Positions 8,362-36,996 of a stretch of DNA of 38,221 nt are shown piece after piece. The notes under the pieces are model-generated. The model saw only the letters and a program-made list of their open reading frames with translations, ran no database searches and was not told where the DNA came from. Position 1 is the stretch's first letter. Each line of letters opens with the position of its first letter. Position numbers and translations under genes: made by a program. The stretch is from a virus (taxonomy: Duplodnaviria; Heunggongvirae; Uroviricota; Caudoviricetes): positions 1-38,221 of the IMG/VR virus record IMGVR_UViG_2565956731_000004. One strand, 5' to 3'.

Positions 8362-9321
8362 ATGAAAATTTGTATCGACGACGGCTCCACCAACATCAAG
8401 CTGGCATGGACTGAGAACAGCGAACGCCGCAACGCCATCAGCCCGAACAGCTTCAAGTCGGAATGGTCTGCGCCGTTCGGTGGCTCGCAGCCTGCGAACT
8501 ACATGCTTGATGGCGTGCGCTATGGTTTTGATCCGGTCAGCGATCGCTTTGTCCAGACGACCGACACGCAATACCAGTACAGCGATGTGAATGTAATCGC
8601 CATTCACCACGCGCTGGTCAAATCAGGCATCACACCACAGGAGGTGGATGTGGTTGTCACCCTGCCACTGAGCGAGTATTTCGACACAAACGCACAGCCG
8701 GACATGGCCAACATCAACCGCAAAAAAGCAAACGTCATGCGCCCGGTGGAGTACCAGAACGGCGAAGCATTCACTATCCGTAACGTGCGGGTTATGCCTG
8801 AATCCATTCCGGCTGGCTTTAAGGCACTGGCTGACATGAGTCCGTTTGAATCCCTGCTGATTGTGGATTTAGGCGGAACCACGCTGGATGTGGCAAAGGT
8901 CCAGGGACAACTGGCAGGTATCAGCCAGGTGTTTTGCGATCCACACGTAGGCGTTTCCCTGATGGCCGATGCCGTACTGTCGGTGATGGCCACTAACGGT
9001 ATGCGTACCAGTCACCATATCGCCAATACCATTATCGAACATCGCCACGATGAAGCCTGGCTGCGCCAGCACATCCACAATGACGCGCATTACGACAGCC
9101 TGATGGCGGTTATTCGTGAAAAGGAAGAAACACTGAAACAACGAGTGATCCGCGCGCTGGCGGGTTTTTCGGGTTACGGGCGGGTGATGGTTGTCGGTGG
9201 CGGGGCGGAGATTGTGGCACCCGCTATCCGCGAAGCCTGCGGAGTTAATGCGACTTTCATCGCGGACGGGGTGCCACAGTTTGCTCTGGTTAATGGGCTG
9301 TACGCAATGGACAAGGAGTAA
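8362..9321 (+). CDS. actin-like ATPase, ParM/StbA family
   Basis: 319 aa; N-terminus MKICIDDGSTNIKLAW...ISPNSFK...YQYSDVNVIAIHHAL closely parallels the recalled plasmid R1 ParM N-terminus (MLVFIDDGSTNIKLQW...SPNSFK...WQYSDVNVVAVHHAL); glycine-rich VDLGGTT and VVGGGA motifs. Confidence 0.8.
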   Translation: MKICIDDGSTNIKLAWTENSERRNAISPNSFKSEWSAPFGGSQPANYMLDGVRYGFDPVSDRFVQTTDTQYQYSDVNVIAIHHALVKSGITPQEVDVVVTLPLSEYFDTNAQPDMANINRKKANVMRPVEYQNGEAFTIRNVRVMPESIPAGFKALADMSPFESLLIVDLGGTTLDVAKVQGQLAGISQVFCDPHVGVSLMADAVLSVMATNGMRTSHHIANTIIEHRHDEAWLRQHIHNDAHYDSLMAVIREKEETLKQRVIRALAGFSGYGRVMVVGGGAEIVAPAIREACGVNATFIADGVPQFALVNGLYAMDKE

Positions 9322-20647: not shown

Positions 20648-21544
20648 ATGCCCGCTGTTGACCTTTCCCAGTTACCGGAACCCGCCATCATCGCGGAGCC
20701 TGACTTTGAGGCAATTCTGGCTGACACAAAGGCCATGATGATTGCGGCTTATCCCGCCGAACAGCGTGAAGCCGTCTCCGCCGCGCTGGAGCTGGAATCG
20801 GAACCCCTGAACGTTATCGCCCAGACAACAGCGTTTCGTGAAATGCTGTTACGCCAGCGGGTCAATGAGGGGGCACGCGCCTGCATGTTAAGCCACAGCG
20901 CCGGGACAGACCTGGACAACCTCGCGGGCAATATGAACACAAAGCGCCTGACCATCACTCCGGCAACGGATACCACCGACGCAGTGATGGAAAGTGACAC
21001 CTCGCTGAGACTGCGGGCGCAGCGGGCGTACGATGGTCTGAGTGTTGCTGGCCCGTCAGGTGCATACGAGTATTTTGCACGCAGCGCCAGCGGTCTGGTA
21101 CGCGATGCGCGGGCCATCAGCCCGTCTCCGGCCAACGTGACGGTTTCCATCCTGTCCACTGAGGGCGACGGCACAGCAACGGAGGCGTTGCTTAATACCG
21201 TTCGCGCCGTTCTGAATGCAGAGGATACCCGCCCGGTGGCCGACCGCCTGACCGTACAGAGTGCCAGAATCATGACATGGCGGCTGAATGCAAAACTGTA
21301 CTTTTACCCCGGCCCGGAATCCGAACCTATTCTGGCCGCGGCGGAATCGTCGTTCAGGAAGTGGCTGTCTGAGCAGGGGCTTATCGGTCAGGACGTGGCG
21401 TTGTCAGCCATTGCTGCCGCACTGCATGTGCACGGTGTGCAACGCGTGGAGATAATCGAACCCACACAAAATATGGCCATCAGCGACATACAGGCGGCGC
21501 GCTGTGAGTCATTCACCATCAGCGAAGGTGGGCGTAATGAGTAA
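20648..21544 (+). CDS. J: baseplate protein J
   Basis: 298 aa; position and size as P2 J. Confidence 0.9.
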   Translation: MPAVDLSQLPEPAIIAEPDFEAILADTKAMMIAAYPAEQREAVSAALELESEPLNVIAQTTAFREMLLRQRVNEGARACMLSHSAGTDLDNLAGNMNTKRLTITPATDTTDAVMESDTSLRLRAQRAYDGLSVAGPSGAYEYFARSASGLVRDARAISPSPANVTVSILSTEGDGTATEALLNTVRAVLNAEDTRPVADRLTVQSARIMTWRLNAKLYFYPGPESEPILAAAESSFRKWLSEQGLIGQDVALSAIAAALHVHGVQRVEIIEPTQNMAISDIQAARCESFTISEGGRNE

Positions 21545-22067
21545 TTCACTGTTACCGCCATCAGCCAGCAATTTCATGCGTTGTGCCGAAGCTATCGGAA
21601 CGCGCATTACAGACATTCCGGTAGACCTCAACACGCTGTGGTCGCCGGACACCTGCCCGGTGCATCTGCTGCCTTATCTCGCCTGGGCATTTTCCGTTGA
21701 CCGCTGGGATCGCAACTGGCCGGAAGAGACAAAGCGACAGGTGATTCGTGATGCATGGCTGATACACCGACACAAAGGGACCATCAGCGCACTGCGCCGG
21801 GCCATTGAGCCGCTGGGATACCTCATTCGTGTGTCTGAGTGGTGGGAGTTCGGCGGAGAACCGGGAACATTTACCGTTGAAGTCGGCACGCTGGACAGTG
21901 GCGTGACGGAGGAAATGTATCTGGAAATGGAGCGGTTGATTGCTGATGCCCGCCCGGTCAGCCGCCACATGACAGGGCTGAATATCATTCAGGAGATCCC
22001 GGGGGATATTTTCGCGGCGGCAGCAACTTACGACGGTGAAGTCATTACCATTTATCCGGACGATTAA
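21537..22067 (+). CDS. I: baseplate / tail protein I
   Basis: 176 aa from the ATG overlapping the J stop. Confidence 0.85.
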   Translation: MSNSLLPPSASNFMRCAEAIGTRITDIPVDLNTLWSPDTCPVHLLPYLAWAFSVDRWDRNWPEETKRQVIRDAWLIHRHKGTISALRRAIEPLGYLIRVSEWWEFGGEPGTFTVEVGTLDSGVTEEMYLEMERLIADARPVSRHMTGLNIIQEIPGDIFAAAATYDGEVITIYPDD

Positions 22068-22069
22068 GC

Positions 22070-24241
22070 ATGAGTACCACAACACGAAAATTTAAAACCA
22101 TTATCACTGATACTGGTGCCAAAAAATTAGCTCAGGCAGCCGCGCCAGATGGTAATCCTGTCCGCCTGACTCACATGGCCGTGGGCGACGGTGGCGGCAC
22201 GTTGCCCACACCAGACAGTAAGCAGACCCGTCTGGTGCATGAGGTGTGGCGACATACTGTTAATCGCGTCATCCTGGACGCAACACATCAGAACCGCATT
22301 ATTGCGGAGCTGGTTATTCCTCCTGAAACGGGCGGATTCTGGATCCGGGAAATTGGTGTATTTGATGAGCACGGCGATTTGATCGCGGTGGGCAATACTG
22401 CCGAAAGTTACAAGCCAACCGTTGCCGAAGGATCCGGACGTGCACAAACATTTCGCACCATTCTGACCGTATCCAGCACTGCCACCGTGGCGCTTACCGT
22501 GGATAACACCATGGTTATGGCCACAGTGGATTACGTGAATGACAAACTGAAAGAACATGAACAGTCACGACGTCACCCGGACGCCTCGCTGACCGCAAAA
22601 GGCTTTGTTCAACTCAGTAGCGCCACTAACAGCGATTCTGAAACGCTGGCTGCAACGCCGAAAGCGGTTAAGGCCGCGTATGACCTGGCTAACGGAAAAT
22701 ATACCGCTCAGGACGCCACGACGGCACGAAAAGGGATAGTCCAGCTCAGCAGTGCAACCAACAGCACGTCTGAAACGCTGGCAGCGACACCAAAAGCGGT
22801 TAAGGCGGTAATGGATGAAACGAACAAGAAAGCCCCATTAAACAGCCCGGCACTGACCGGAACGCCAACAACACCAACTGCACGACAGGGAACGAATAAT
22901 ACCCAAATCGCAAGCACGGCTTTCGTTATGGCCGCGATTGCCGCACTTGTAGATTCGTCACCTGACGCACTGAACACGCTGAACGAGCTGGCGGCGGCGC
23001 TGGGCAACGACCCGAATTTTGCGACCACCATGACTAACGCGCTTGCGGGTAAGCAACCGAAAGATGCCACCCTGACGGCGCTGGCCGGGCTTGCTACTGC
23101 GGCAGACAGGTTTCCGTATTTTACGGGGAATGATGTTGCCAGTCTGGCAACCCTGACAGAAGTCGGGCGGGATATTCTTGCGAAATCGACCGTTGCCGCT
23201 GTTATCGAATACCTCGGTTTACAGGAAACGGTAAACAGGGCTGGTAACGCCGTTCAGCGTTCCGGCGATAAAATGACCGGAGAACTGAAAATTGGCACGA
23301 TGAATGCGCTGCGAATTTTTAATGATGCCTTCGGTCTTATTTTCCGTCGTTCAGAAGAGTCCCTTCATTTCATCCCTACGGTTGAAGGACAAGGCGAAAA
23401 CGGTGATATCGGCCCATTAAGGCCATTCGCTATAAATCTAAGAACAGGTGCTATATCTGTCAGCCACGGGGCCAAAATTGATGGTGGGCTGGCGCTTGGT
23501 ACGGATAACGCACTGGGCGGTAATTCAATTACTCTCGGAGATAACGATACCGGTATTAAACAGGGCGGCGACGGTGTCCTTTTATTCTATTTAAATGGAC
23601 AACTGGCATTTGGGCTTCAACCCGCATCTGCTGATTTTTATAAGCGGGTTGCATATACTCATCAGGGAATAGTTCCTGAAGGAAGTGGCGCATTTGCAGA
23701 CCAGTTGAATAATGCCACCGCGCCTTTTGTTCAGACACGGTTTGCCTGGAATCCCGCTCCTGGTGGTCATTACGTGCCGATAGCTAAGGGCCTGTCTATT
23801 CGCAATGGACAGGGGTATCCGGGTGCTGTCAGCTTTGGCTATTTACTGACAGAACAAATGGGATTTCCAATTCCATGTGTTCATATGCGTGGCGATGGCG
23901 GTAATGATGTTTTATGGCAGTTTAACCCAAACGACAAATCTTTTATTTCACCGGGTTCTCTTGTTGCGGGCGGAGTACGTTATAACACCGATGGAAATAT
24001 ATTTGGCGGGTGTTGGGGTTCAAATTTAGCTGATTATCTTAATAGCACATATGTAAGAGACATTCGACTTGGAAGCGCAGAATCAATATCAGCATGGCGA
24101 GGTCCTGGTTACTGGGATACTTCTGGATATGTTCTGACCGCAGCCGGAAACAGCAACACCGATGAATTTATTGATACATTAACCAGAAGGCCTATTCAGA
24201 AGTTGATTGGTGGGACATATTATAACGTTGTGAGTATTTGA
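22070..24241 (+). CDS. H: tail fibre protein H (constant N-terminal part plus currently expressed variable C-terminal part)
   Basis: 723 aa; tandem protein repeat ([26 protein letters not shown] twice); the invertase crossover site lies inside the gene at 23202..23227. Confidence 0.9.
23202..23227. other. DNA-invertase crossover site (hix/gix/cix-like), left
   Basis: TTATCGAATACC-TC-GGTTTACAGGAA; 23 of 26 identical to the reverse complement of the site at 26216..26241; matches the recalled Hin/Gin half-site pattern (TTxxxxAAACC / GGTTTxxxxAA). Confidence 0.8.
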
Positions 24242-24242
24242 C

Positions 24243-24770
24243 ATGATGCATTTAAAAAACATTAAAGCAGGGAACCCAAAAACACCTGAACAATACCAGT
24301 TAACCAAAAAAGCTGGAGTGGTCTGGCTTTATACTGAAGATGGTAAAAACTGGTACGAAGAACAAAAAAACTTTCAACCAGATACTATAAAAATTGCATA
24401 CGATAAAAATAATGTGATTGTTACCGTAAGCAAAGATGTTTCAACTATTAACCCGGAAGGTTTAAGTGTTGTTGAAGTATCCGATATTACGGCAAATCGT
24501 CGCGCAGACAATAACGGAAACTGGATGTTTCTGGATGGTAAAGTAGTAAAGCGGGAATATACAAAACAGGAGCTGCAACAGCAGGCAGAGTTACAAAAAG
24601 CCACTTTGCTTTCCGAAGCGGAGTCTGTGATTCAACCGCTGGAACGTGCTGTCAGGCTGAATATGGCAACTAATGAGGAACGCGCACGACTGGAGTCATG
24701 GGAACGCTACAGTGTTCTGGTCAGCCGTGTGGATACGGCAAATCCTGAATGGCCACAAAAGCCTGAATAA
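24243..24770 (+). CDS. G: tail fibre assembly chaperone (P2 gpG-like), currently expressed copy
   Basis: 175 aa immediately after H; N-terminal half nearly identical to the inverted copy. Confidence 0.8.
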
Positions 24771-24775
24771 AAATT

Positions 24776-24795
24776 AAGGCCCGATAGCGGGCCTT
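24776..24795. terminator. bidirectional hairpin between the convergent chaperone genes
   Basis: AAGGCCCG-atag-CGGGCCTT. Confidence 0.6.
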
Positions 24796-24798
24796 GTC

Positions 24799-25332
24799 TC
24801 ATTCTGGTTGTTCCGGGAATGTTACAGGAAGAACAGAGGTATCTGTGACATCAACCTGCTGCATGTATAACATCCAGTTAATGAGTCTTTGCCTGTCTGA
24901 ATCGCTGATAATTCCCAGCGCAAGCTGTGTTTGCCAGCACTGCGTTTCCTCTCTGGCCTGTCGCAGCAAAATCTGTTTCTGAATTTCAGCCAGTTGACGT
25001 AGTTCTTCATCAGTCCGGGGGCGTTTCATGACCTTGCCATCCTGAAACACCCAGTCACCGAGAATATCGGCCCGGCGATTCGCTGTCGTGTCGGGTAATT
25101 CGACAACGCTCATTCCTTCCGGGTTAATAGACGACACATCTTTTTCAATATAGCGAATGATACCTCTGTCATCGTAAGCGATTTTTAGTGTGTCTGCCTG
25201 AAAGGCTTTTTGTGCCTCATACCAGTTCTGACCATCTTCAGCGTAAAGCCAGATAACACCATGTCTCTTTGTTAACTCATACTGTTCCAGTGTTTTAGCA
25301 TTACCCGCTTTTATGTTCTTTAAGTGCATCAT
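24799..25332 (-). CDS. alternative tail fibre assembly chaperone (G'), silent orientation
   Basis: 177 aa; [11 protein letters not shown]... N-terminus shared with G, divergent C-terminal half. Confidence 0.75.
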   Translation of the reverse strand: MMHLKNIKAGNAKTLEQYELTKRHGVIWLYAEDGQNWYEAQKAFQADTLKIAYDDRGIIRYIEKDVSSINPEGMSVVELPDTTANRRADILGDWVFQDGKVMKRPRTDEELRQLAEIQKQILLRQAREETQCWQTQLALGIISDSDRQRLINWMLYMQQVDVTDTSVLPVTFPEQPE

Positions 25333-25333
25333 A

Positions 25334-26233
25334 TTAAACGCTCGCTACATTATACCAGGTGCCATTTATATACTTTTGAACGGGTCTGTAATAAACGCCC
25401 GCTATATTATCGGCAGAGTTGGACCCTGTATCCTGAACATTAATACCAGACAATACATGACCTGACGGGCACTGGAAATTCCATGTTTGCCAGTTGTTCA
25501 CACCATGATATTGCTGTGAACCAAGACGAACATCTTTCACATAGCGGGAATCAAAATTCCCCCAGTTACTGGGTTGTATCTGACCGTTAACAGCAAATAT
25601 TACTGAGTTATCTGTATTTCGCTGACTATAGAAATGCCAGCCTGAATCATCACCAAGCTCTGCAACAGTTGGTCTTGATGAAGTGCCCCATAAATTAAAC
25701 CCTACGTTCTTCGTGGAGTTGTTGGAGCTGGATAGCGTGAATTTTTTACCATCCCCAGCCTGAATATTTTTAAAAGCAATAGCCACTCCATTCTGAAAGC
25801 GGAATACACGCTGACTATTAGCATAAACATCAAGAATACCGTCTCCATTCTGTTTAAATCCGGTATCATTATCACCAAGAACAATAGAGCTACCACCTAA
25901 CGCATTCGTCGTACCGATCCCCACACTGCCATTAATGACAGCATTAACAAGAATATTTAGTGCATCCCATTTCAGCGTCATCAGATCTTTTGTTGTGGTA
26001 CTTTGTTTGCTTCTCCATTTGAAATATTCATTGCCGTTGTCGCCTGTTTCAAACCACATGTATGAATCAGTATCGCTGTCGGCATCATTTTTAAATCCAA
26101 TCTTTGCCCAGTCAGTATTTCGAATCCAGGCAAGGATTGAGTCGTTTTCAAAAGTAAGTCCACCGGACAAGGTATCGCCTGTCTTTTGAACGGCGTTAGC
26201 AGCCTTGTTTACCGTTTCCTGTAAACCGAGGTT
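25334..26233 (-). CDS. alternative tail-fibre variable C-terminal segment (H'), no own start, silent orientation
   Basis: Open frame runs from the right crossover site; begins ...[31 protein letters not shown], which matches the H constant-variable junction ([17 protein letters not shown]); shares LGG-SI-LGDNDTG-KQ-GDG motif with the expressed variable part. Confidence 0.75.
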   Translation of the reverse strand, partial: NLGLQETVNKAANAVQKTGDTLSGGLTFENDSILAWIRNTDWAKIGFKNDADSDTDSYMWFETGDNGNEYFKWRSKQSTTTKDLMTLKWDALNILVNAVINGSVGIGTTNALGGSSIVLGDNDTGFKQNGDGILDVYANSQRVFRFQNGVAIAFKNIQAGDGKKFTLSSSNNSTKNVGFNLWGTSSRPTVAELGDDSGWHFYSQRNTDNSVIFAVNGQIQPSNWGNFDSRYVKDVRLGSQQYHGVNNWQTWNFQCPSGHVLSGINVQDTGSNSADNIAGVYYRPVQKYINGTWYNVASV

Positions 26234-26241
26234 TTAGATAA
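26216..26241. other. DNA-invertase crossover site (hix/gix/cix-like), right
   Basis: TTCCTGTAAACC-GA-GGTTTTAGATAA; inverted partner of 23202..23227. Confidence 0.8.
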
Positions 26242-26295
26242 TGGCCGTTTCCGGCCTGCATGGCATGATTTGCGCTTTTGGACGGGAGATTCAGC

Positions 26296-26883
26296 GTGCT
26301 GATTGGCTATGTAAGGGTATCAACAAATGACCAGAATACAGACCTGCAACGAAACGCTCTTGTTTGTGCAGGATGTGAACAAATATTTGAAGATAAATTA
26401 AGCGGGACAAAGACAGACCGACCGGGATTAAAACGCGCTTTAAAGCGCCTTCAAAAAGGTGACACGCTGGTTGTCTGGAAACTGGATCGCCTCGGGCGAA
26501 GCATGAAACATCTGATTTCTCTCGTCGGGGAACTACGGGAGCGAGGAATTAATTTTCGCAGTCTGACCGACAGCATAGATACATCTTCTCCAATGGGGCG
26601 TTTTTTCTTCCACGTGATGGGTGCCCTGGCTGAAATGGAACGTGAATTAATTGTTGAACGTACACTGGCCGGACTGGCGGCAGCACGCGCACGGGGGCGC
26701 ACAGGCGGACGTCGACCGAAGCTGACAAAAGAACAGCATGAGCAAATAGCAAGGCTGATCAAAAACGGGCACGACAGAAAACAACTGGCAATAATTTACG
26801 GCATTGGTATATCGACGATTTATCGTTACCACCCCGCAGGAGAATCAAGCGGAACAATAGAGAAGAGTCAGGAAACAAAATAA
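26296..26883 (+). CDS. serine DNA invertase (Hin/Gin/Cin/Pin family)
   Basis: About 195 aa from the GTG at 26296 (GGGAG RBS); VLIGYVRVSTNDQNTDLQ catalytic-serine N-terminus; C-terminal HTH (IYGIGISTIYRY); adjacent to the invertible segment. Confidence 0.9.
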   Translation: MLIGYVRVSTNDQNTDLQRNALVCAGCEQIFEDKLSGTKTDRPGLKRALKRLQKGDTLVVWKLDRLGRSMKHLISLVGELRERGINFRSLTDSIDTSSPMGRFFFHVMGALAEMERELIVERTLAGLAAARARGRTGGRRPKLTKEQHEQIARLIKNGHDRKQLAIIYGIGISTIYRYHPAGESSGTIEKSQETK

Positions 26884-26910
26884 CCGCTAATCTGACCATT
26901 AGCGGTTTTT
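26882..26910. terminator. hairpin terminator between the invertase and convergent U
   Basis: AACCGCTAAT-ctgacc-ATTAGCGGTT followed by TTTTT. Confidence 0.7.
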
Positions 26911-26918
26911 GTGTTAAA

Positions 26919-27413
26919 TCAGAACAGCCCTTTAACGGAGCTGGCCGCGCTGTTAAGGGATGATGTGACCTTATCTTTGAAGCCGGACAGCATATCACTG
27001 AACGATGAGGATTGCAGGCGCTCCCGCAAATCCTCATCACAGCGTTCAAGAGTCAGTGAAAATTCTATCTTTTTCGCCTTACCGTAGCGATCAAACTCGG
27101 AGCGGGTCGTATTCGTTTCAGTCAGTACATACATGCCGTAAATCTGCCCGACACCATCAATCAGAGGCCAGGGGCGTCCTGTATATGCCTGCGTGGTCAG
27201 CAGCGAAAGCGACACTTCGCCACCTGTAATTTCAGGATAAAGCACGCCGGAAAGCACAATGCGATCATCACCTGCACCGATATACTGCCAGCTTGCTGAA
27301 CGGTTAACGCGTTCATTTTTCACATGCCGCCAGCTTTTGTTTTGCTGTAACTGCTGATGCGGCAATGTGCGCAGCTCAAAAACAAACATGCCGTAGATCA
27401 TCATCATGGCCAT
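26919..27413 (-). CDS. U: tail protein U
   Basis: 164 aa; recognisable similarity to recalled P2 U (FVF-LRTLP, SGVLYPEI-GG); last gene of the leftward tail block. Confidence 0.85.
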   Translation of the reverse strand: MAMMMIYGMFVFELRTLPHQQLQQNKSWRHVKNERVNRSASWQYIGAGDDRIVLSGVLYPEITGGEVSLSLLTTQAYTGRPWPLIDGVGQIYGMYVLTETNTTRSEFDRYGKAKKIEFSLTLERCDEDLRERLQSSSFSDMLSGFKDKVTSSLNSAASSVKGLF

Positions 27414-27419
27414 GACTCC

Positions 27420-30233
27420 TCAATCTTTATCGTAAAAACTACCACGCCCGGCACGGGCGCGCCGTTCCATTTCTGCCCTGACCATTTCACCGACCAGTTT
27501 CGCCACTTCGCGGGGATTCTGCGTAACAACGTTATGCAGATGAACATGAATTTCACCGCCAAATCCGGAGACAGCAGGCTCCCGATTACGGGAAGCTGCA
27601 GGAACTGATGCCACTGGCGATCGTATGGCCTCCGCCACCGGGCGGGAGCTGGCCGCAACAACAGGGACCAGCGCCGGAGGCAGCGGAGCCGGGACTACGG
27701 GTGTGATATTAATTGCGGGGGGCTTACTGATCTGCGCAATCTTCCGCTCCTGCCACTCCCCACGAACAGCAAGTGCGCGGGGCAGGTTCTTAAAGACAAT
27801 ATCGCCGGGGCCAATGCGTTTTTTCGTCTCATCAACCAGCTTACCTGTGTTATCAGCAATTTTGCTGAGTCTGCGCAGCGTACCGGTATTGCTGTCTGTG
27901 AGCGGTTTATTGTCTTTGGGGTTATCACCTCCGGTGCCATTGCCATTTTCCACAGGCTTCGGCGGATTGATTTTCGCCAGGTCCCCCTGAAGCAAGGCAA
28001 CCTTGTCCTGAAGAATGGCCGCACGCTGTGCGTCTTCGATTTTCTTGCGCGCCCTTTCCGCTTCATCCGGAAGGACGCCAAGTTTTTCAAGTATCCACGC
28101 CAGCGTATCCAGCAGCATTTTTGCAGGTGTCAGAACAAGCTGTAACGCATCGCCAAGAACGTTACCGAATATCTCGCCAGCACTGGTACATTTATCCAGC
28201 GTTTCCTTGCTGGACTCCATCGGTGACAGCAGCGATTTAAACCAGTTAAACACCTGGCTGATCCCGCTCCCGATTGCGTCAAAAACAGGACCAAACCGTT
28301 CAAAGGTTTCGCGCAACGGGGTCAGCCTTTCCATAATCCCGCTGAACACCCCAGCAAAAAATGCCCTGATGGGATCCCAGTATTTCCAGATAAGAACGGC
28401 AGCTCCGGCAAGCGCAGCCACGATAAGACCAACCGGACTGAACAGCGCCCCGATAGCGCCTCCCAGTAAAGAAACGGAACCCGTCACCATTCCCCATAGT
28501 GCTGGCAGGACCCTGACAGCATTCATTGATCCGGTCAGGAGAGAAAAACCAAGACGCAGTTTTGCCAGCGGACCAGCAAGCACACCAATAGCCAGCGACA
28601 ACGAGCCAACCGTTGCAGTCACTGCCAGCAACGCACCGCCTGCTATCAGTAGCTGGCGCGTCAGTGCCGGATGGGCCTGCGCCAGCGCCGTCACCCTTGA
28701 TACCACCCGCGTGAGCCACTGCGTGACAGAACGCAGCGGACCGTCAATCAGATCTGCAATGCGGATGCGCAACCCTTCCCATGCACTGCCGAGTGATTTC
28801 AGATCGCCGTCAAGGTTGTTGGCCATAACCTTTGCGGTGCGTTCAGCCTCACCGCGCGCGCCTTCAAGTTCTTTTCTCAGTTTGGGTAAGGAACCGTCAC
28901 CCGCTGCATCAACGAGCGCCATAAACGATGTGAAAGCCTCTTCTCCGGCAATGTCCTTAAAGAACGATACCCGGTCAACTTCCCCGTATTTGCGGGTGGC
29001 TTTATAAAGGTCGGCCAGCACATCCTCCATCGGGCGCATTTTGCCCCCGGCATCCGAGACGGACACGCCCAGCTCTTTCAGAGCTTCTGCCGCCGCCTTT
29101 GGCGGTGATGCCAGACGAGCCAGGCTGGCACGCATTGCCGTCCCGGCATCACTCCCTCTGATGCCCATATTCGCCAGCACGCCAGCCATCGCTGCGGCCT
29201 GCTCCAGCGATATTCCCAGCTTACCCGCCACCGGGCCTGCATATTTCATGGTTTCGCCCAGTGCGCGAAGGTCAGTGTTGGTACGGGTAAACGCTGCGGT
29301 GAGTGTGTCACCGACCCGGTCCATCTGGTCAGCAGAAAGGCCGAACTGCGTCAGGATATTTGAGCCAATATCTGCCGTCTCGCCGAGATCCATACCGCCA
29401 GCCGTTGCCATGCTCAGCACGCCGGGAAGCGCAGCCTGAATGGCCTGCGGAGTGAAGCCAGCCATTGCAAGAAATGCCTGTCCACTGGCGGCATCGCCTG
29501 CGGTGAACTGCGTTTCAGAGCCAAGTTTTAACGCCTGCTCACGCAGCGCCTTAAACTGCGGGCTGTTCTGGTCGATTCGCGTCAGTGCCTGAACGCGGGA
29601 CATCTCTTTGCCGAACCCGATCGCAGGCTGCAAAAAACGCCCGGCAGCATAGCCGCCCGCCGCTGCCGCACCAATTGCCAGCGCACCACCTGTTTTCAGT
29701 TTTCCCGCTGTTTCCTGCGCGCGCGAATACCGCTCACGCGCCCGCGTTACACGCGCAAGCGCCTGCCGTTCGCGTTCAAGCTGGTTGTTGTACTGTTCGG
29801 TGCGTCTGATGGCCTGCTGGATGGTGTTATCGCTGCCTGTCAGGGAAATGCCGTGGCGTTTCAGCTCTCCGCCAAGTTCCCGCATTTTCTGAATTTCCCG
29901 TGTGCGCGATTCATTCAGGCGCTCAAGCCGGGTGCTTAACTGCTGCATCAGCTTTTGTTGTTTTTCGCTGAGCACTGTACCCGTGCGTTGTAACTGATTA
30001 AGGGCGTTAAGCTGGCGTCGTGCTTTCACGATGCCAGCATCCGCTTTACTGACAGCGTCACGGGCGCGCTCAAATGAACGCGCCTGACGCTCGAGATTTT
30101 TGATCGCCCCCTGCGTTCGCTGGATGGAGTCACCAAACTGCCCCATCAGGCGGCGGGCGTTTTCGGCAGGCCGGGTCAGCCTGTCAACGGCGCTGAAAGC
30201 GACCCGGATATCAAGAGTCTTCATTATCTGCAT
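27420..30233 (-). CDS. T: tail tape measure protein T
   Basis: 937 aa; coiled-coil N-terminus, Gly/Ala-rich hydrophobic central region; follows the E/E' chaperone pair. Confidence 0.9.
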   Translation of the reverse strand: MQIMKTLDIRVAFSAVDRLTRPAENARRLMGQFGDSIQRTQGAIKNLERQARSFERARDAVSKADAGIVKARRQLNALNQLQRTGTVLSEKQQKLMQQLSTRLERLNESRTREIQKMRELGGELKRHGISLTGSDNTIQQAIRRTEQYNNQLERERQALARVTRARERYSRAQETAGKLKTGGALAIGAAAAGGYAAGRFLQPAIGFGKEMSRVQALTRIDQNSPQFKALREQALKLGSETQFTAGDAASGQAFLAMAGFTPQAIQAALPGVLSMATAGGMDLGETADIGSNILTQFGLSADQMDRVGDTLTAAFTRTNTDLRALGETMKYAGPVAGKLGISLEQAAAMAGVLANMGIRGSDAGTAMRASLARLASPPKAAAEALKELGVSVSDAGGKMRPMEDVLADLYKATRKYGEVDRVSFFKDIAGEEAFTSFMALVDAAGDGSLPKLRKELEGARGEAERTAKVMANNLDGDLKSLGSAWEGLRIRIADLIDGPLRSVTQWLTRVVSRVTALAQAHPALTRQLLIAGGALLAVTATVGSLSLAIGVLAGPLAKLRLGFSLLTGSMNAVRVLPALWGMVTGSVSLLGGAIGALFSPVGLIVAALAGAAVLIWKYWDPIRAFFAGVFSGIMERLTPLRETFERFGPVFDAIGSGISQVFNWFKSLLSPMESSKETLDKCTSAGEIFGNVLGDALQLVLTPAKMLLDTLAWILEKLGVLPDEAERARKKIEDAQRAAILQDKVALLQGDLAKINPPKPVENGNGTGGDNPKDNKPLTDSNTGTLRRLSKIADNTGKLVDETKKRIGPGDIVFKNLPRALAVRGEWQERKIAQISKPPAINITPVVPAPLPPALVPVVAASSRPVAEAIRSPVASVPAASRNREPAVSGFGGEIHVHLHNVVTQNPREVAKLVGEMVRAEMERRARAGRGSFYDKD

Positions 30234-33916: not shown

Positions 33917-34975
33917 TTAAAAATTATTTATTATGTGTTCAGCTAAATGATCATACTCACCAGCCATCTCATTCATTAGTTCTACCTGATTAACTGCCCA
34001 TTGCCCCCGCCCACGAAGAGCATTCGTTGGCCTAACTCGAGACAAATAGCGAATAGGTATATTTTGAATAATACTATCAGGAGCCATAACGTTGAGGTCC
34101 TCAATCTTTCCAACTGGTTCATAATCAGTAAAATCAGGAACCGCGTTGTAAGATGAAATCTGTGAAAGCTGAGGAAGCATTTTTTCCTCTATCGCTTTTC
34201 TTATTGAACGGTGATGAACTGCATCTGCACCAACCTCTTGTTTAACATCATTTTGCTTTCTCGTATCAAAACCATTGAATATCCAACCGCCAAATTTAGG
34301 CATCCCTTTCTGAGATATAATATTATCTCGTGGGTTACCTGATAGATATCTTTCCTTGCCCTGCTCCCAATCACGTATAAATGATGGCAACATCTCACCA
34401 ATCAGCCCTACACAATATGAAGAGAATAAATCAGGTGTGCATGGAACTAAAAAATAGTCCGAACAGTACAATGACGATCTAACAAGCGTATTGAATGAGG
34501 GAGGTAAATCTATTAGGACATAATCATAAATAACATCATTTTTCTCTGATGCTTTTTTTGTTATCAAATCTGGCAAAATAAAACGATATAACCCTGCGCC
34601 ACTTATAACATCAGTGCCGACATTTAAAATATCTGAAAATGTATTAAGCCAAAAGTCTCCAGGAACAATATGCAAAACGCCTGCATCTGTCTTAGTCTTA
34701 GGTTCTGTTGTATAAACTTCACCTATAGTATTTTGTTGTATGTAAGGCAATGCAAATGCTTTAACCGTTTTTCCAAAAGGGAAATCATCTGAAGGTTCCA
34801 ATAACTCTGAAAATTCCTCATCACCAATACATGCAATTGAGAGATTACACTGGGGATCAAAGTCTATTAATAAAACACTTTTTCCTTTATCTGCTAGCGA
34901 TACTGCAAGATTCCAAATTATAGTTGTTTTACCAACACCACCTTTGTTATTAAAAATCGATATAGTTTTTGTCAT
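33917..34975 (-). CDS. ParA/MinD-family P-loop ATPase with about 100-aa C-terminal extension, AT-rich gene
   Basis: 352 aa; deviant Walker A KGGVGKTT near the N-terminus; LLIDFDPQCN and DYVLIDLPP motifs; flanked by AT-rich intergenic DNA; composition clearly AT-richer than the tail genes. Confidence 0.8.
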   Translation of the reverse strand: MTKTISIFNNKGGVGKTTIIWNLAVSLADKGKSVLLIDFDPQCNLSIACIGDEEFSELLEPSDDFPFGKTVKAFALPYIQQNTIGEVYTTEPKTKTDAGVLHIVPGDFWLNTFSDILNVGTDVISGAGLYRFILPDLITKKASEKNDVIYDYVLIDLPPSFNTLVRSSLYCSDYFLVPCTPDLFSSYCVGLIGEMLPSFIRDWEQGKERYLSGNPRDNIISQKGMPKFGGWIFNGFDTRKQNDVKQEVGADAVHHRSIRKAIEEKMLPQLSQISSYNAVPDFTDYEPVGKIEDLNVMAPDSIIQNIPIRYLSRVRPTNALRGRGQWAVNQVELMNEMAGEYDHLAEHIINNF

Positions 34976-36062: not shown

Positions 36063-36260
36063 ATGACGCAAAATGTACGATGCAAAAATTGCAACAAACT
36101 ACTTGCCCGCGCCTCATTTCACTACATTGAAATAAAATGTCCGCGCTGCAAAACACTTAACCAGATAACGAGAGCCATTGAGCCCCCCACACACATGAGG
36201 AGTTATGACCGTGGGGATCGCAATCCAGCACCAACCAGCACATACACCGGAACACACTAA
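36063..36260 (+). CDS. Com-like zinc-ribbon protein (Mu Com family)
   Basis: About 65 aa from the ATG at 36063 (AAGAGG RBS); VRCKNCNKLLARASFHYIEIKCPRCKTLN matches recalled Mu Com (IRCKNCNKLLFKA...HIEIRCPRCK); 3' end overlaps the methyltransferase start by 56 nt. Confidence 0.6.
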   Translation: MTQNVRCKNCNKLLARASFHYIEIKCPRCKTLNQITRAIEPPTHMRSYDRGDRNPAPTSTYTGTH

Positions 36261-36996
36261 GGTTTATCAGACTGACAATGCCACGCTCTGTCGTGGGAAT
36301 GCGCTGGAAATATTGCCGCTGATTGAGCCAGAAAGTATTGATGCCTTAATCACTGACCCGCCTTACAGTTCGGGCGCGACACACAAGGCCGGACGCACCA
36401 ACCAGGGCAGCCACGCAAAATATCTGAACGGCGAGAACCTTCATCGCTTTGATGGGTTTGCGGGTGAAAACATGGATGCCCGTTCGTGGGCTTACTGGAC
36501 ACAATTATGGATGGCACAGGCACACCGCGCAGTCAGGCCGGGCGGTTATGCCCTGGTATTTACTGACTGGCGACAACTGCCAGCTTTAACCGATGCGTTT
36601 CAGGCCAGCGGTTTTACATGGCGTGGAATCATTGCGTGGAACAAAGGAAGGGGGTCACGAACACCCCATACGGGGTATTTCCGGCATCAGTGCGAATACA
36701 TCGTCTGGGGCAGTAAAGGCCATTTAGGTAAATCGCCTTCGGGACCGTTCGACGGCTGCATGACGTTCCCGGTTATCCCATCAAAGAAAATGCACCCGAC
36801 CGGAAAACCAGAAGAACTTATGGCAGAACTGGTCAGGACTGCGAATAGTGGTGGAACAGTCCTTGATCCTTTTATGGGATCGGGAACAACGGGTGTTGCA
36901 GCACTGAAAGCAGGGCGCAAATTTATTGGTATAGAAACCAGTGATCATTATTTTGATATAGCAACACAACGGCTCAAAACGGCGATCGAACCATAA
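36205..36996 (+). CDS. DNA methyltransferase (N6-adenine/N4-cytosine class, DPPY motif)
   Basis: 263 aa; catalytic DPPY (LITDPPYSS) near the N-terminus and AdoMet motif DPFMGSGTTG near the C-terminus; GAGG RBS. Confidence 0.85.
   Translation: MTVGIAIQHQPAHTPEHTKVYQTDNATLCRGNALEILPLIEPESIDALITDPPYSSGATHKAGRTNQGSHAKYLNGENLHRFDGFAGENMDARSWAYWTQLWMAQAHRAVRPGGYALVFTDWRQLPALTDAFQASGFTWRGIIAWNKGRGSRTPHTGYFRHQCEYIVWGSKGHLGKSPSGPFDGCMTFPVIPSKKMHPTGKPEELMAELVRTANSGGTVLDPFMGSGTTGVAALKAGRKFIGIETSDHYFDIATQRLKTAIEP

Follow-up and report, generated by a model that had tools for sequence, protein, structure and literature searches.

A probable two-state inversion switch exchanging tail-fibre tips and chaperones in a P88-like prophage

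Organisation of the tail-fibre region

A full-length P88-like prophage (Xuanwuvirus, P2-related) makes up the 38,221-nucleotide stretch of viral DNA that we analysed (hereafter, the window). Three active phages, P88, phiSM and PhiR44_2, matched its backbone at ~96% identity; their genes lie in the same order and include an annotated DNA invertase gene. The two crossover-site sequences of the window recur in Escherichia phage P88, Citrobacter phage phiSM and other Xuanwuvirus members, and the common order of genes is I, H, G, G′, H′ and DNA invertase, followed by the convergent gpU gene and the tape-measure operon. The cassette pair carried between the sites differed from that of P88, which at 88% identity aligned with just 62% of the region from H to the invertase gene. 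The pair was closer to Mu-like elements, namely a prophage of E. coli 2014C-3075 (96%) and Yersinia phage vB_YpM_3 (88.5%). The features of the region are listed in Table 1.

Table 1. Features of the tail-fibre region, with positions in the window.
Feature	Position	Strand	Details
H ORF, P2-type tail fibre, 723 aa	22070–24241	+	Left site lies inside
H constant N-terminal part, codons 1–382	22070–23215	+	Fused to either tip
Left crossover site, gix-like	23202–23227	+	TTATCGAATACCTCGGTTTACAGGAA = TTATCGAATACC-TC-GGTTTACAGGAA; core TC 23214–23215
Tip A, variable, 341 codons + stop	23216–24241	+	Now in the expressed position
G, tail-fibre assembly chaperone for tip A, 175 aa	24243–24770	+	Pfam Caudo_TAP, E=8.8e-37
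GC-rich hairpin between the convergent chaperone genes	24776–24795		AAGGCCCG-ATAG-CGGGCCTT; pattern match only
G′, alternative chaperone, 177 aa, silent here	24799–25332	-	Pfam Caudo_TAP, E=1.2e-27
Tip B, variable, 297 codons + stop	25334–26227	-	Without its own start codon
Right crossover site	26216–26241	-	TTATCTAAAACCTCGGTTTACAGGAA = TTATCTAAAACC-TC-GGTTTACAGGAA; core 26228–26229
Gin-family serine DNA invertase, 195 aa	26296–26883	+	GTG start, GGGAGA ahead
5′ part of the invertase gene, presumed Fis-dependent recombinational enhancer	26296–26405	+	DNA identity with Mu gin
Two-way terminator-like hairpin, invertase gene/convergent gpU gene	26882–26907		Pattern match

The N-terminal part of H matched the Pfam Phage_tail_fib N-terminal domain (E=5.8e-54) and Phage_fiber_2 repeats. 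The left crossover site lies within this gene, as an earlier reading of the letters and open reading frames alone (the sequence-only reading) had proposed. Because codon 382 finishes with the crossover dinucleotide of the site, inversion trades 341 codons of H for 297 alternative ones; the sequence-only reading had correctly predicted replacement by an alternative pair on the minus strand, and its figure of 338 codons is amended here to 341. When the window was inverted in silico at the central TC shared by both sites, the reading frame was kept and a continuous 679-aa H::tipB product was obtained. The region thus has the arrangement of a G segment, in which a site inside the fibre gene leaves a constant N-terminus in frame with either C-terminus (723 aa v 679 aa).

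In the frame of tip B, the sole start codon is a TTG located 19 codons within the segment; just outside the segment there is an in-frame TAA (26234–26236). Tip B also matched Pfam Gp34_trimer. The two tips were 28% identical overall (E=5e-30), in keeping with the divergence described earlier, and had more in common than the one short motif then reported: conserved blocks were found at the start, at GT.NALGG.SI.LGDNDTG.KQ.GDG and over the last ~65 residues. From the divergence of the tips it is reasonable to suppose that they have two receptor specificities. In related genomes, RefSeq calls the silent fibre copy a pseudogene "missing N-terminus".

Each tip is followed within the segment by its own chaperone gene and the silent copy has no start, again as in a G segment. 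The products of G and G′ were 55% identical. The hairpin between the two chaperone genes has a T-run on the minus strand only. A search of NCBIfam with the invertase, fibre and chaperone proteins returned no specific family, every match falling below its cut-off.

Crossover sites, invertase and presumed enhancer

The sites lie in inverted orientation, have an identical TC core and match each other at 24 of 26 positions. Their positions and orientation had been read correctly from the sequence, together with an identity of 23/26 that did not survive a recount. Alignment with Mu gix (read from NC_000929), a check that had been suggested at the same time, gave 24/26 identical positions for the left site and 25/26 for the right. 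A search of the 38-kb window for the 26-mer, allowing three or fewer mismatches, returned exactly two matches, and none was returned from 100 shuffles. The pair therefore has the form of Din-family sites, that is, two inverted 26-bp sites with imperfect 12-bp half-sites and a shared 2-bp core. The window held no third or cryptic site, the next-best 26-mer matching at 18 of 25 specified positions, which rules out a multi-inversion, shufflon-like system of the kind found in one EPEC P2-like prophage. The inverted repeat extends inward from the sites for 85 nt at 81% identity and includes a perfect run of 27 nt.

A serine invertase gene begins 54 bp outside the right site; the sequence-only reading had already placed such a gene immediately outside that site, with its end at 26883. 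The most likely start is the GTG at 26296, as in Mu gin, rather than the first TTG at 26278. The product matched Pfam Resolvase (E=1.3e-50) and HTH_7 (E=1.6e-13), and therefore has the make-up of a small serine recombinase, with Ser9 in the catalytic domain and a C-terminal helix-turn-helix. It also matched the Gin structures 4m6f and 3uj3 in the PDB (E~1e-101), and both Ser9 and the wild-type Met114 were present; the A9 of the 3uj3 chain is an engineered S9A substitution (PMC3575834). Compared with Mu Gin, the catalytic domain (aa 1–113) was identical at 112/113 residues, and aa 138–183 at 24/46 (52%). Since just 52% of the DNA-binding domain is shared with Gin, the enzyme's binding to these particular sites is predicted from the behaviour of the family.

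Invertase-specific contacts with Fis and the enhancer have been assigned in Hin to K47, R48 and K51 and to Q151, R154 and L155 (PMC3798978). On inspection of the translation, the first three residues correspond to K46, R47 and K50 (Gin numbering) in ...PGLKRALKRL..., and the equivalents of the others are Q, R and L within ...KEQHEQIARLI..., so that all of these contact positions are conserved. No inactivating change was found in the invertase, in which Ser9 and all the family-specific residues compared were intact.

The first 110 nt of the invertase gene were 100% identical to Mu gin, with four substitutions in the first 224 nt, and three Fis sites have been located within the gin coding region (PMC3378877). 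On that identity and that statement, a Fis enhancer is presumed to lie in the 5′ part of the invertase gene, where the sequence-only reading had suggested looking for one. Fis-like 15-mers begin at 26341 and 26389, a spacing of 48 bp, in a motif scan too degenerate for choosing sites. We infer that switching depends on Fis and supercoiling, and its rate is likewise a matter of inference. A simple scan for a promoter of the invertase gene passed no sigma-70-like candidate.

Both orientations among related sequences

A metagenome scan yielded the decisive copy in the other orientation. On contig QZLS01000691.1, the inner segment was 99.84% identical to that of the window and lay on the opposite strand relative to the flanks. 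The window inverted in silico was colinear with this contig over 7001 bp, without gaps, at 99.24% identity, and the 679-aa fusion predicted from the inversion is encoded there. The two known states of the locus, with breakpoints at the sites, come from different samples.

Complete genomes gave a sparser picture for this particular pair. It occurred on this backbone in only one complete E. coli genome, 08_3323 (98.5%), in the same orientation as in the window, and the same pair in flipped form was not found among 5,426 complete E. coli genomes. A scan of one genome per species with the flipped right junction gave 0 matches. Junction queries against the complete E. coli genomes found each tip in either position in hundreds of genomes, mostly with other partners.

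These observations bear on whether this copy has stopped inverting, with its orientation fixed and tip B and G′ carried as dead cargo. The orientation shared with 08_3323, the closest relative among complete genomes, would be expected of such a fossil, as would the lack of a clear invertase promoter. We nevertheless consider it very unlikely, given that the invertase is without an inactivating change and retains Ser9 and the family-specific residues compared, that both sites have kept the same core, that tip B and G′ are intact ORFs, and that a 99.2%-identical copy exists in flipped form.

Homologous segments elsewhere, in near-isogenic E. coli genomes, were compared by DNA search and DNA alignment, not by BLAST. 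In a Mu-like prophage of the E. coli isolates Esc30 and Esc31 there was a clean flip (2985 bp, 100% identical after reverse-complementing), whose boundaries were exactly the sites. In the ST131 isolates 4/1-1 and 4/0, the outer half-sites were as in the window and the inner half-sites swapped between isolates, so the crossover there is confined to ~11 bp around the TC. The 26-mer of the left site was itself present in strain 4/1-1.

The crossover between the window and QZLS01000691.1 could be placed only to within the 27-nt perfect run, and the arms share the 85-nt, 81% identical repeat that holds this run. Both would suit a different origin of the two orientations, by RecA-dependent homologous recombination between the inverted repeats and not by the invertase. 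The ST131 exchange interval, which contains the core TC, is too short at only ~11 bp for efficient RecA recombination; moreover, both ends of the Esc30/Esc31 flip coincide exactly with the sites, and here an intact Gin orthologue accompanies gix-type sites exactly at the boundaries. We accordingly give the RecA explanation a negligible probability.

We put at about 0.93 the probability that the tail-fibre region of this P88-like prophage holds a functional two-state inversion switch of the same type as the Mu G and P1 C segments. The proposal made from the sequence, that a Gin/Hin-family invertase flips a 3-kb segment and so exchanges the fibre C-terminus and its cognate chaperone, agrees with the gix-like sites, the preserved frame, the intact invertase, the match of its gene's 5′ end to the enhancer-bearing part of Mu gin and the flipped contig, and it named the right known class in pointing to the Mu G and P1 C segments.

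Relation to known systems and proposed mechanism

The closest parallel is the Mu G segment, which has the same succession of constant fibre part, site, Sv-U, U′-Sv′, site and invertase. The likeness extends to sites only one or two positions from gix, the 112/113 match in the Gin catalytic domain and the shared opening 110 nt of gin. The first ~100 aa of tip B were almost identical to the variable part of Mu S in G(+), the overall identity being 47%, and only the last ~67 aa of tip A were similar to Mu S′ (52%). The distal parts of both tips, by contrast, differ from S and S′, the element is P2/P88-like rather than a transposable Mu-like phage, and the constant part is a 382-aa N-terminus of P2-H type rather than the 170-aa Mu Sc. 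The invertase also departs from Gin in its DNA-binding domain, and the right site has an in-frame TAA where Mu has CAA.

Other Din-family inversion systems include the C segment of P1/P7 with Cin, the P segment of e14 with Pin, and Salmonella Hin/hix. All share a small serine invertase dependent on Fis and an enhancer, 26-bp sites and a 2-bp core. P1 and e14 exchange alternative tail-fibre C-termini with chaperones, whereas Hin flips a promoter and not coding cassettes. The locus resembles these systems by the general description of the family, the site comparison having been made to gix.

The R64 shufflon uses the tyrosine recombinase Rci, many sfx sites and several pilV segments. There, as probably here, programmed inversion swaps the C-terminus of an LPS-recognising surface adhesin. 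In contrast, our locus pairs a serine invertase with a single segment between exactly two sites, and its target is a phage fibre rather than a pilus gene; it does not belong with shufflons of the R64 type. The sequence-only reading had called it a shufflon, a misnomer for a simple two-state switch with no more than two sites and a serine enzyme. The class, its mechanism and its occurrence in P2-like prophages are already known, and inversion in P2-like prophages of EPEC E2348/69 has been shown experimentally (Goldberg et al. 2014, PMC4272514).

In the mechanism that we propose, dimers of the Gin-family invertase would bind both inverted 26-bp sites, and host Fis, bound at the presumed enhancer near the start of the invertase gene, would promote assembly of a synaptic tetramer on supercoiled DNA. 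The tetramer would then cut at the central TC of both sites, rotate by 180 degrees and religate, flipping 23216–26227. In the orientation seen in the window, the late transcript would yield H(1–382)::tipA (723 aa) and G; in the flipped orientation, it would yield H(1–382)::tipB (679 aa) and G′. The copy in the off position would have neither promoter nor start codon and would be closed by the in-frame TAA. With two alternative fibre and chaperone outputs, a lysogenic population would therefore release two virion types, a host-range bet hedge on this mechanism. Their receptors probably differ and are most likely LPS-core variants; the LPS core serves related Mu-like phages as receptor (PMC10434027).

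Alternatively, the main selected role might lie in the lysogen, where a variant fibre and chaperone would alter the cell surface or block adsorption by other phages. There is a precedent in PinQ and e14 StfE2: the inverted e14 P segment is reported to give rise to StfE2, by which the adsorption of T2 is blocked (PMC12529663). Action of invertases in trans between prophages, as in the ST131 case, also fits such a role. However, phages ~96% identical to this full-length P88-like prophage do form virions. H belongs to the late operon for the baseplate and tail fibre and is therefore not expected to be expressed in a lysogen. We give this role an exceedingly slim chance of being the main one.

A broader reading, which we regard as very unlikely, would combine a trans-acting network at the level of the lysogen, an adsorption-blocking product in one orientation and a module that moves as a unit. 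The ST131 segment, which has a truncated invertase, suggests that the Din invertases of several prophages act in trans. By analogy with e14 StfE2 under PinQ, one orientation might yield a fibre and chaperone that block the adsorption of competing phages. A unit reaching from the left site to about codon 119 of gin, with the G segment and the right site in between, seems to move among Mu-like, P2-like and lambdoid prophages.

As a two-state switch of virion fibres, the locus exemplifies, in clean and intact form, a classic way for phages to change host range. Its significance beyond correct annotation is slight, and it advances no open question. The silent fibre copy is best described as a functional alternative cassette, comparable to an exon, despite the pseudogene label applied in related genomes. 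The directly readable sites and the crossover interval could aid callers of programmed inversion and the prediction of host range for P88-like phages.

Both orientations of the fibre segment

Metagenome contigs were scanned for the predicted flipped right junction, and eight were returned. One of these, QZLS01000691.1, matched the flanks of the window on one strand (21000-23256 at 97.7%, 26187-28000 at 99.8%) and the inner region 23202-26241 on the opposite strand, at 99.84%. The window inverted in silico was colinear with this contig over 7001 bp (99.24%, no gaps), and the contig encodes the predicted 679-aa fusion of the fibre gene H with tip B, the alternative C-terminus. QZLS01000691.1 is the same element as the window in the flipped state. 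The inversion proposed by the sequence-only reading is thus represented in both orientations, each in a different sample. Three others of the eight, L011 (19-67), L013 (19-67) and L014 (12-60), end 12-20 nt from the crossover site, where an assembly would be expected to break if the inverted repeat occurs in both orientations. Among complete E. coli genomes, the cassette pair occurs on this backbone in strain 08_3323 alone (98.5%), and there it is oriented as in the window.

Homologous segments were also found flipped. E. coli Esc30 and Esc31 carry the same Mu-like prophage in the same place with the segment in opposite orientations; its 2985 bp, bounded by the sites, are 100% identical once reverse-complemented. 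In a degraded prophage of the close E. coli ST131 isolates 4/1-1 (L006, 3479-6585) and 4/0 (L007, 3808-6914), the homologous fibre segment is likewise flipped, between outer half-sites that are those of the window. A variant inner half-site, GGTTTACGAGAA, shifts from the right site to the left between 4/1-1 and 4/0, travelling with the segment, so the exchange was confined to approximately 11 bp around the central TC. An interval this short points to site-specific recombination, rather than RecA-mediated exchange, as the cause of the inversion. The recombinase gene adjoining the ST131 segment is a 180-nt pseudogene, which suggests that the invertase of another prophage acts on the segment in trans.

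Crossover sites and exchanged fibre genes

Features of the invertible fibre locus (window coordinates)
Feature	Coordinates	Strand	Details
H, tail-fibre gene	22070-24241	+	723 aa; P2-type fibre N-terminus, Pfam Phage_tail_fib and Phage_fiber_2 repeats
Left crossover site, TTATCGAATACCTCGGTTTACAGGAA	23202-23227	+	26 bp
G	24243-24770	+	Caudo_TAP chaperone
G'	24799-25332	-	Caudo_TAP chaperone
Tip B	25334-26227	-	Fibre C-terminus without start codon
Right crossover site, TTATCTAAAACCTCGGTTTACAGGAA	26216-26241	-	26 bp, inverted relative to left site
Invertase gene	26296-26883	+	GTG start, GGGAGA ahead, 195 aa; Resolvase and HTH_7 domains

The two inverted sites bracket the segment as had been described from the sequence, and are identical at 24 of 26 positions rather than the 23 first counted. 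They were the only matches in the 38 kb to a 26-bp pattern search allowing up to three mismatches, which gave none in 100 shuffles. No third site is present in the window, where the next-best 26-mer fits only 18 of the 25 specified positions; this is therefore a two-site system. The inverted repeat reaches 85 nt into the segment at 81%, with a perfect run of 27 nt within it. The right site carries, in its outer half, an in-frame minus-strand TAA (26234-26236) that shuts the silent tip B frame from outside; Mu has CAA. This outer half-site, TTATCTAAAACC, also occurs in P88 and in the Esc30, Esc31 and ST131 loci.

The left site lies within H, its central TC (23214-23215) ending codon 382. In silico, a cut at TC in each site followed by inversion of 23216-26227 kept the frame, so that, as claimed, the H C-terminus (tip A) and G are swapped for the minus-strand pair; 341 H codons (not 338) are exchanged for 297. 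The chaperones are 55% identical and the tips 28%, which upholds the reported divergence of the tips, while the one short motif they were said to share becomes three conserved blocks. Tip B begins almost identically to the variable part of Mu S in G(+) and then diverges (47% overall); the likeness of tip A to Mu S' is confined to its last ~67 residues.

A hairpin between the convergent chaperone genes (24776-24795) has a T-run on the minus strand only, a pattern that would make it a more efficient terminator for the H'-G' transcript than for H-G. The constant part of H contains a 96-nt direct repeat (22579-22674 and 22711-22806, 76% identical), corresponding to the two Phage_fiber_2 repeats. 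RefSeq labels the silent fibre C-termini of such segments as pseudogenes, 'incomplete; missing N-terminus' (L003 7369-8079, L004 6265-7161, L005 4835-5731); this label is an artefact of how invertible cassettes are annotated.

Invertase and putative enhancer

A serine invertase gene does lie outside the right site. Its start was set at GTG 26296 by alignment to Mu gin and Gin crystal-structure sequences, overruling the TTG at 26278 given by the ORF lister. In the catalytic domain, residues 1-113 match Gin at 112 of 113 positions, and the catalytic nucleophile Ser9 and wild-type Met114 are both kept; over the DNA-binding domain (aa 138-183) the match falls to 24 of 46. Hin residues K47, R48, K51, Q151, R154 and L155 are uniquely conserved in Fis/enhancer-dependent invertases (PMC3798978), and by inspection their counterparts are retained.

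The gin coding region holds three Fis sites (PMC3378877). Identity to Mu gin, complete over 26296-26405 with only four substitutions in the first 224 nt, supports a putative Fis enhancer in the 5' part of the invertase gene, where the sequence-only reading had suggested looking. A degenerate Fis-motif scan returned several 48-bp-spaced pairs (for example, 15-mers from 26341 and 26389) and singled out no true pair.

Classification and phage context

Each of the defining features that could be checked, both those of a Din-family (Gin-type) inversion system and those of a Mu G-segment-type fibre switch, is present at the locus. The first label, "shufflon", does not fit, because a shufflon uses a tyrosine recombinase, whereas here a serine recombinase goes with two sites and a single segment. 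The window is a P88-like prophage (Xuanwuvirus, Peduoviridae), ~96% identical outside the fibre region to Citrobacter phage phiSM, PhiR44_2 and P88, with the gene order of P88, whose existing annotation already includes a DNA invertase and two fibre/chaperone pairs. Inversion-driven phase variation has been demonstrated experimentally in EPEC P2-like prophages (PMC4272514). Thus neither the kind of system, as first recognised, nor its mechanism, nor its presence in the P88-like group is new.

The cassette pair, by contrast, has its nearer counterparts in Mu-like elements (96% for E. coli 2014C-3075, 88.5% for Yersinia phage vB_YpM_3). The receptor of the Yersinia Mu-like phages is the LPS core (PMC10434027). 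Near 26651, around codon 119 of gin, the DNA ceases to be homologous to Mu-like phages, so the invertase gene is itself mosaic, with its joint there. It seems that one module, made up of the sites, the segment, the enhancer and the 5' part of gin, travels between phage types. Accessory genes encode a ParM-type actin-like segregation protein, a ParA/MinD-like ATPase and an N6/N4 DNA methylase (8362-9321, 33917-34975 on the minus strand, 36205-36996); the ATPase region is missing from most P88-like phages.

The locus is best read as a switch in which Gin- and Fis-mediated inversion yields two virion types. We infer that the inversion depends on Fis and that the two types differ in receptor. A further function of the flip in the lysogen, by way of trans-acting invertases or blocked adsorption, is improbable; PinQ and StfE2 would be the precedent for it (PMC12529663).
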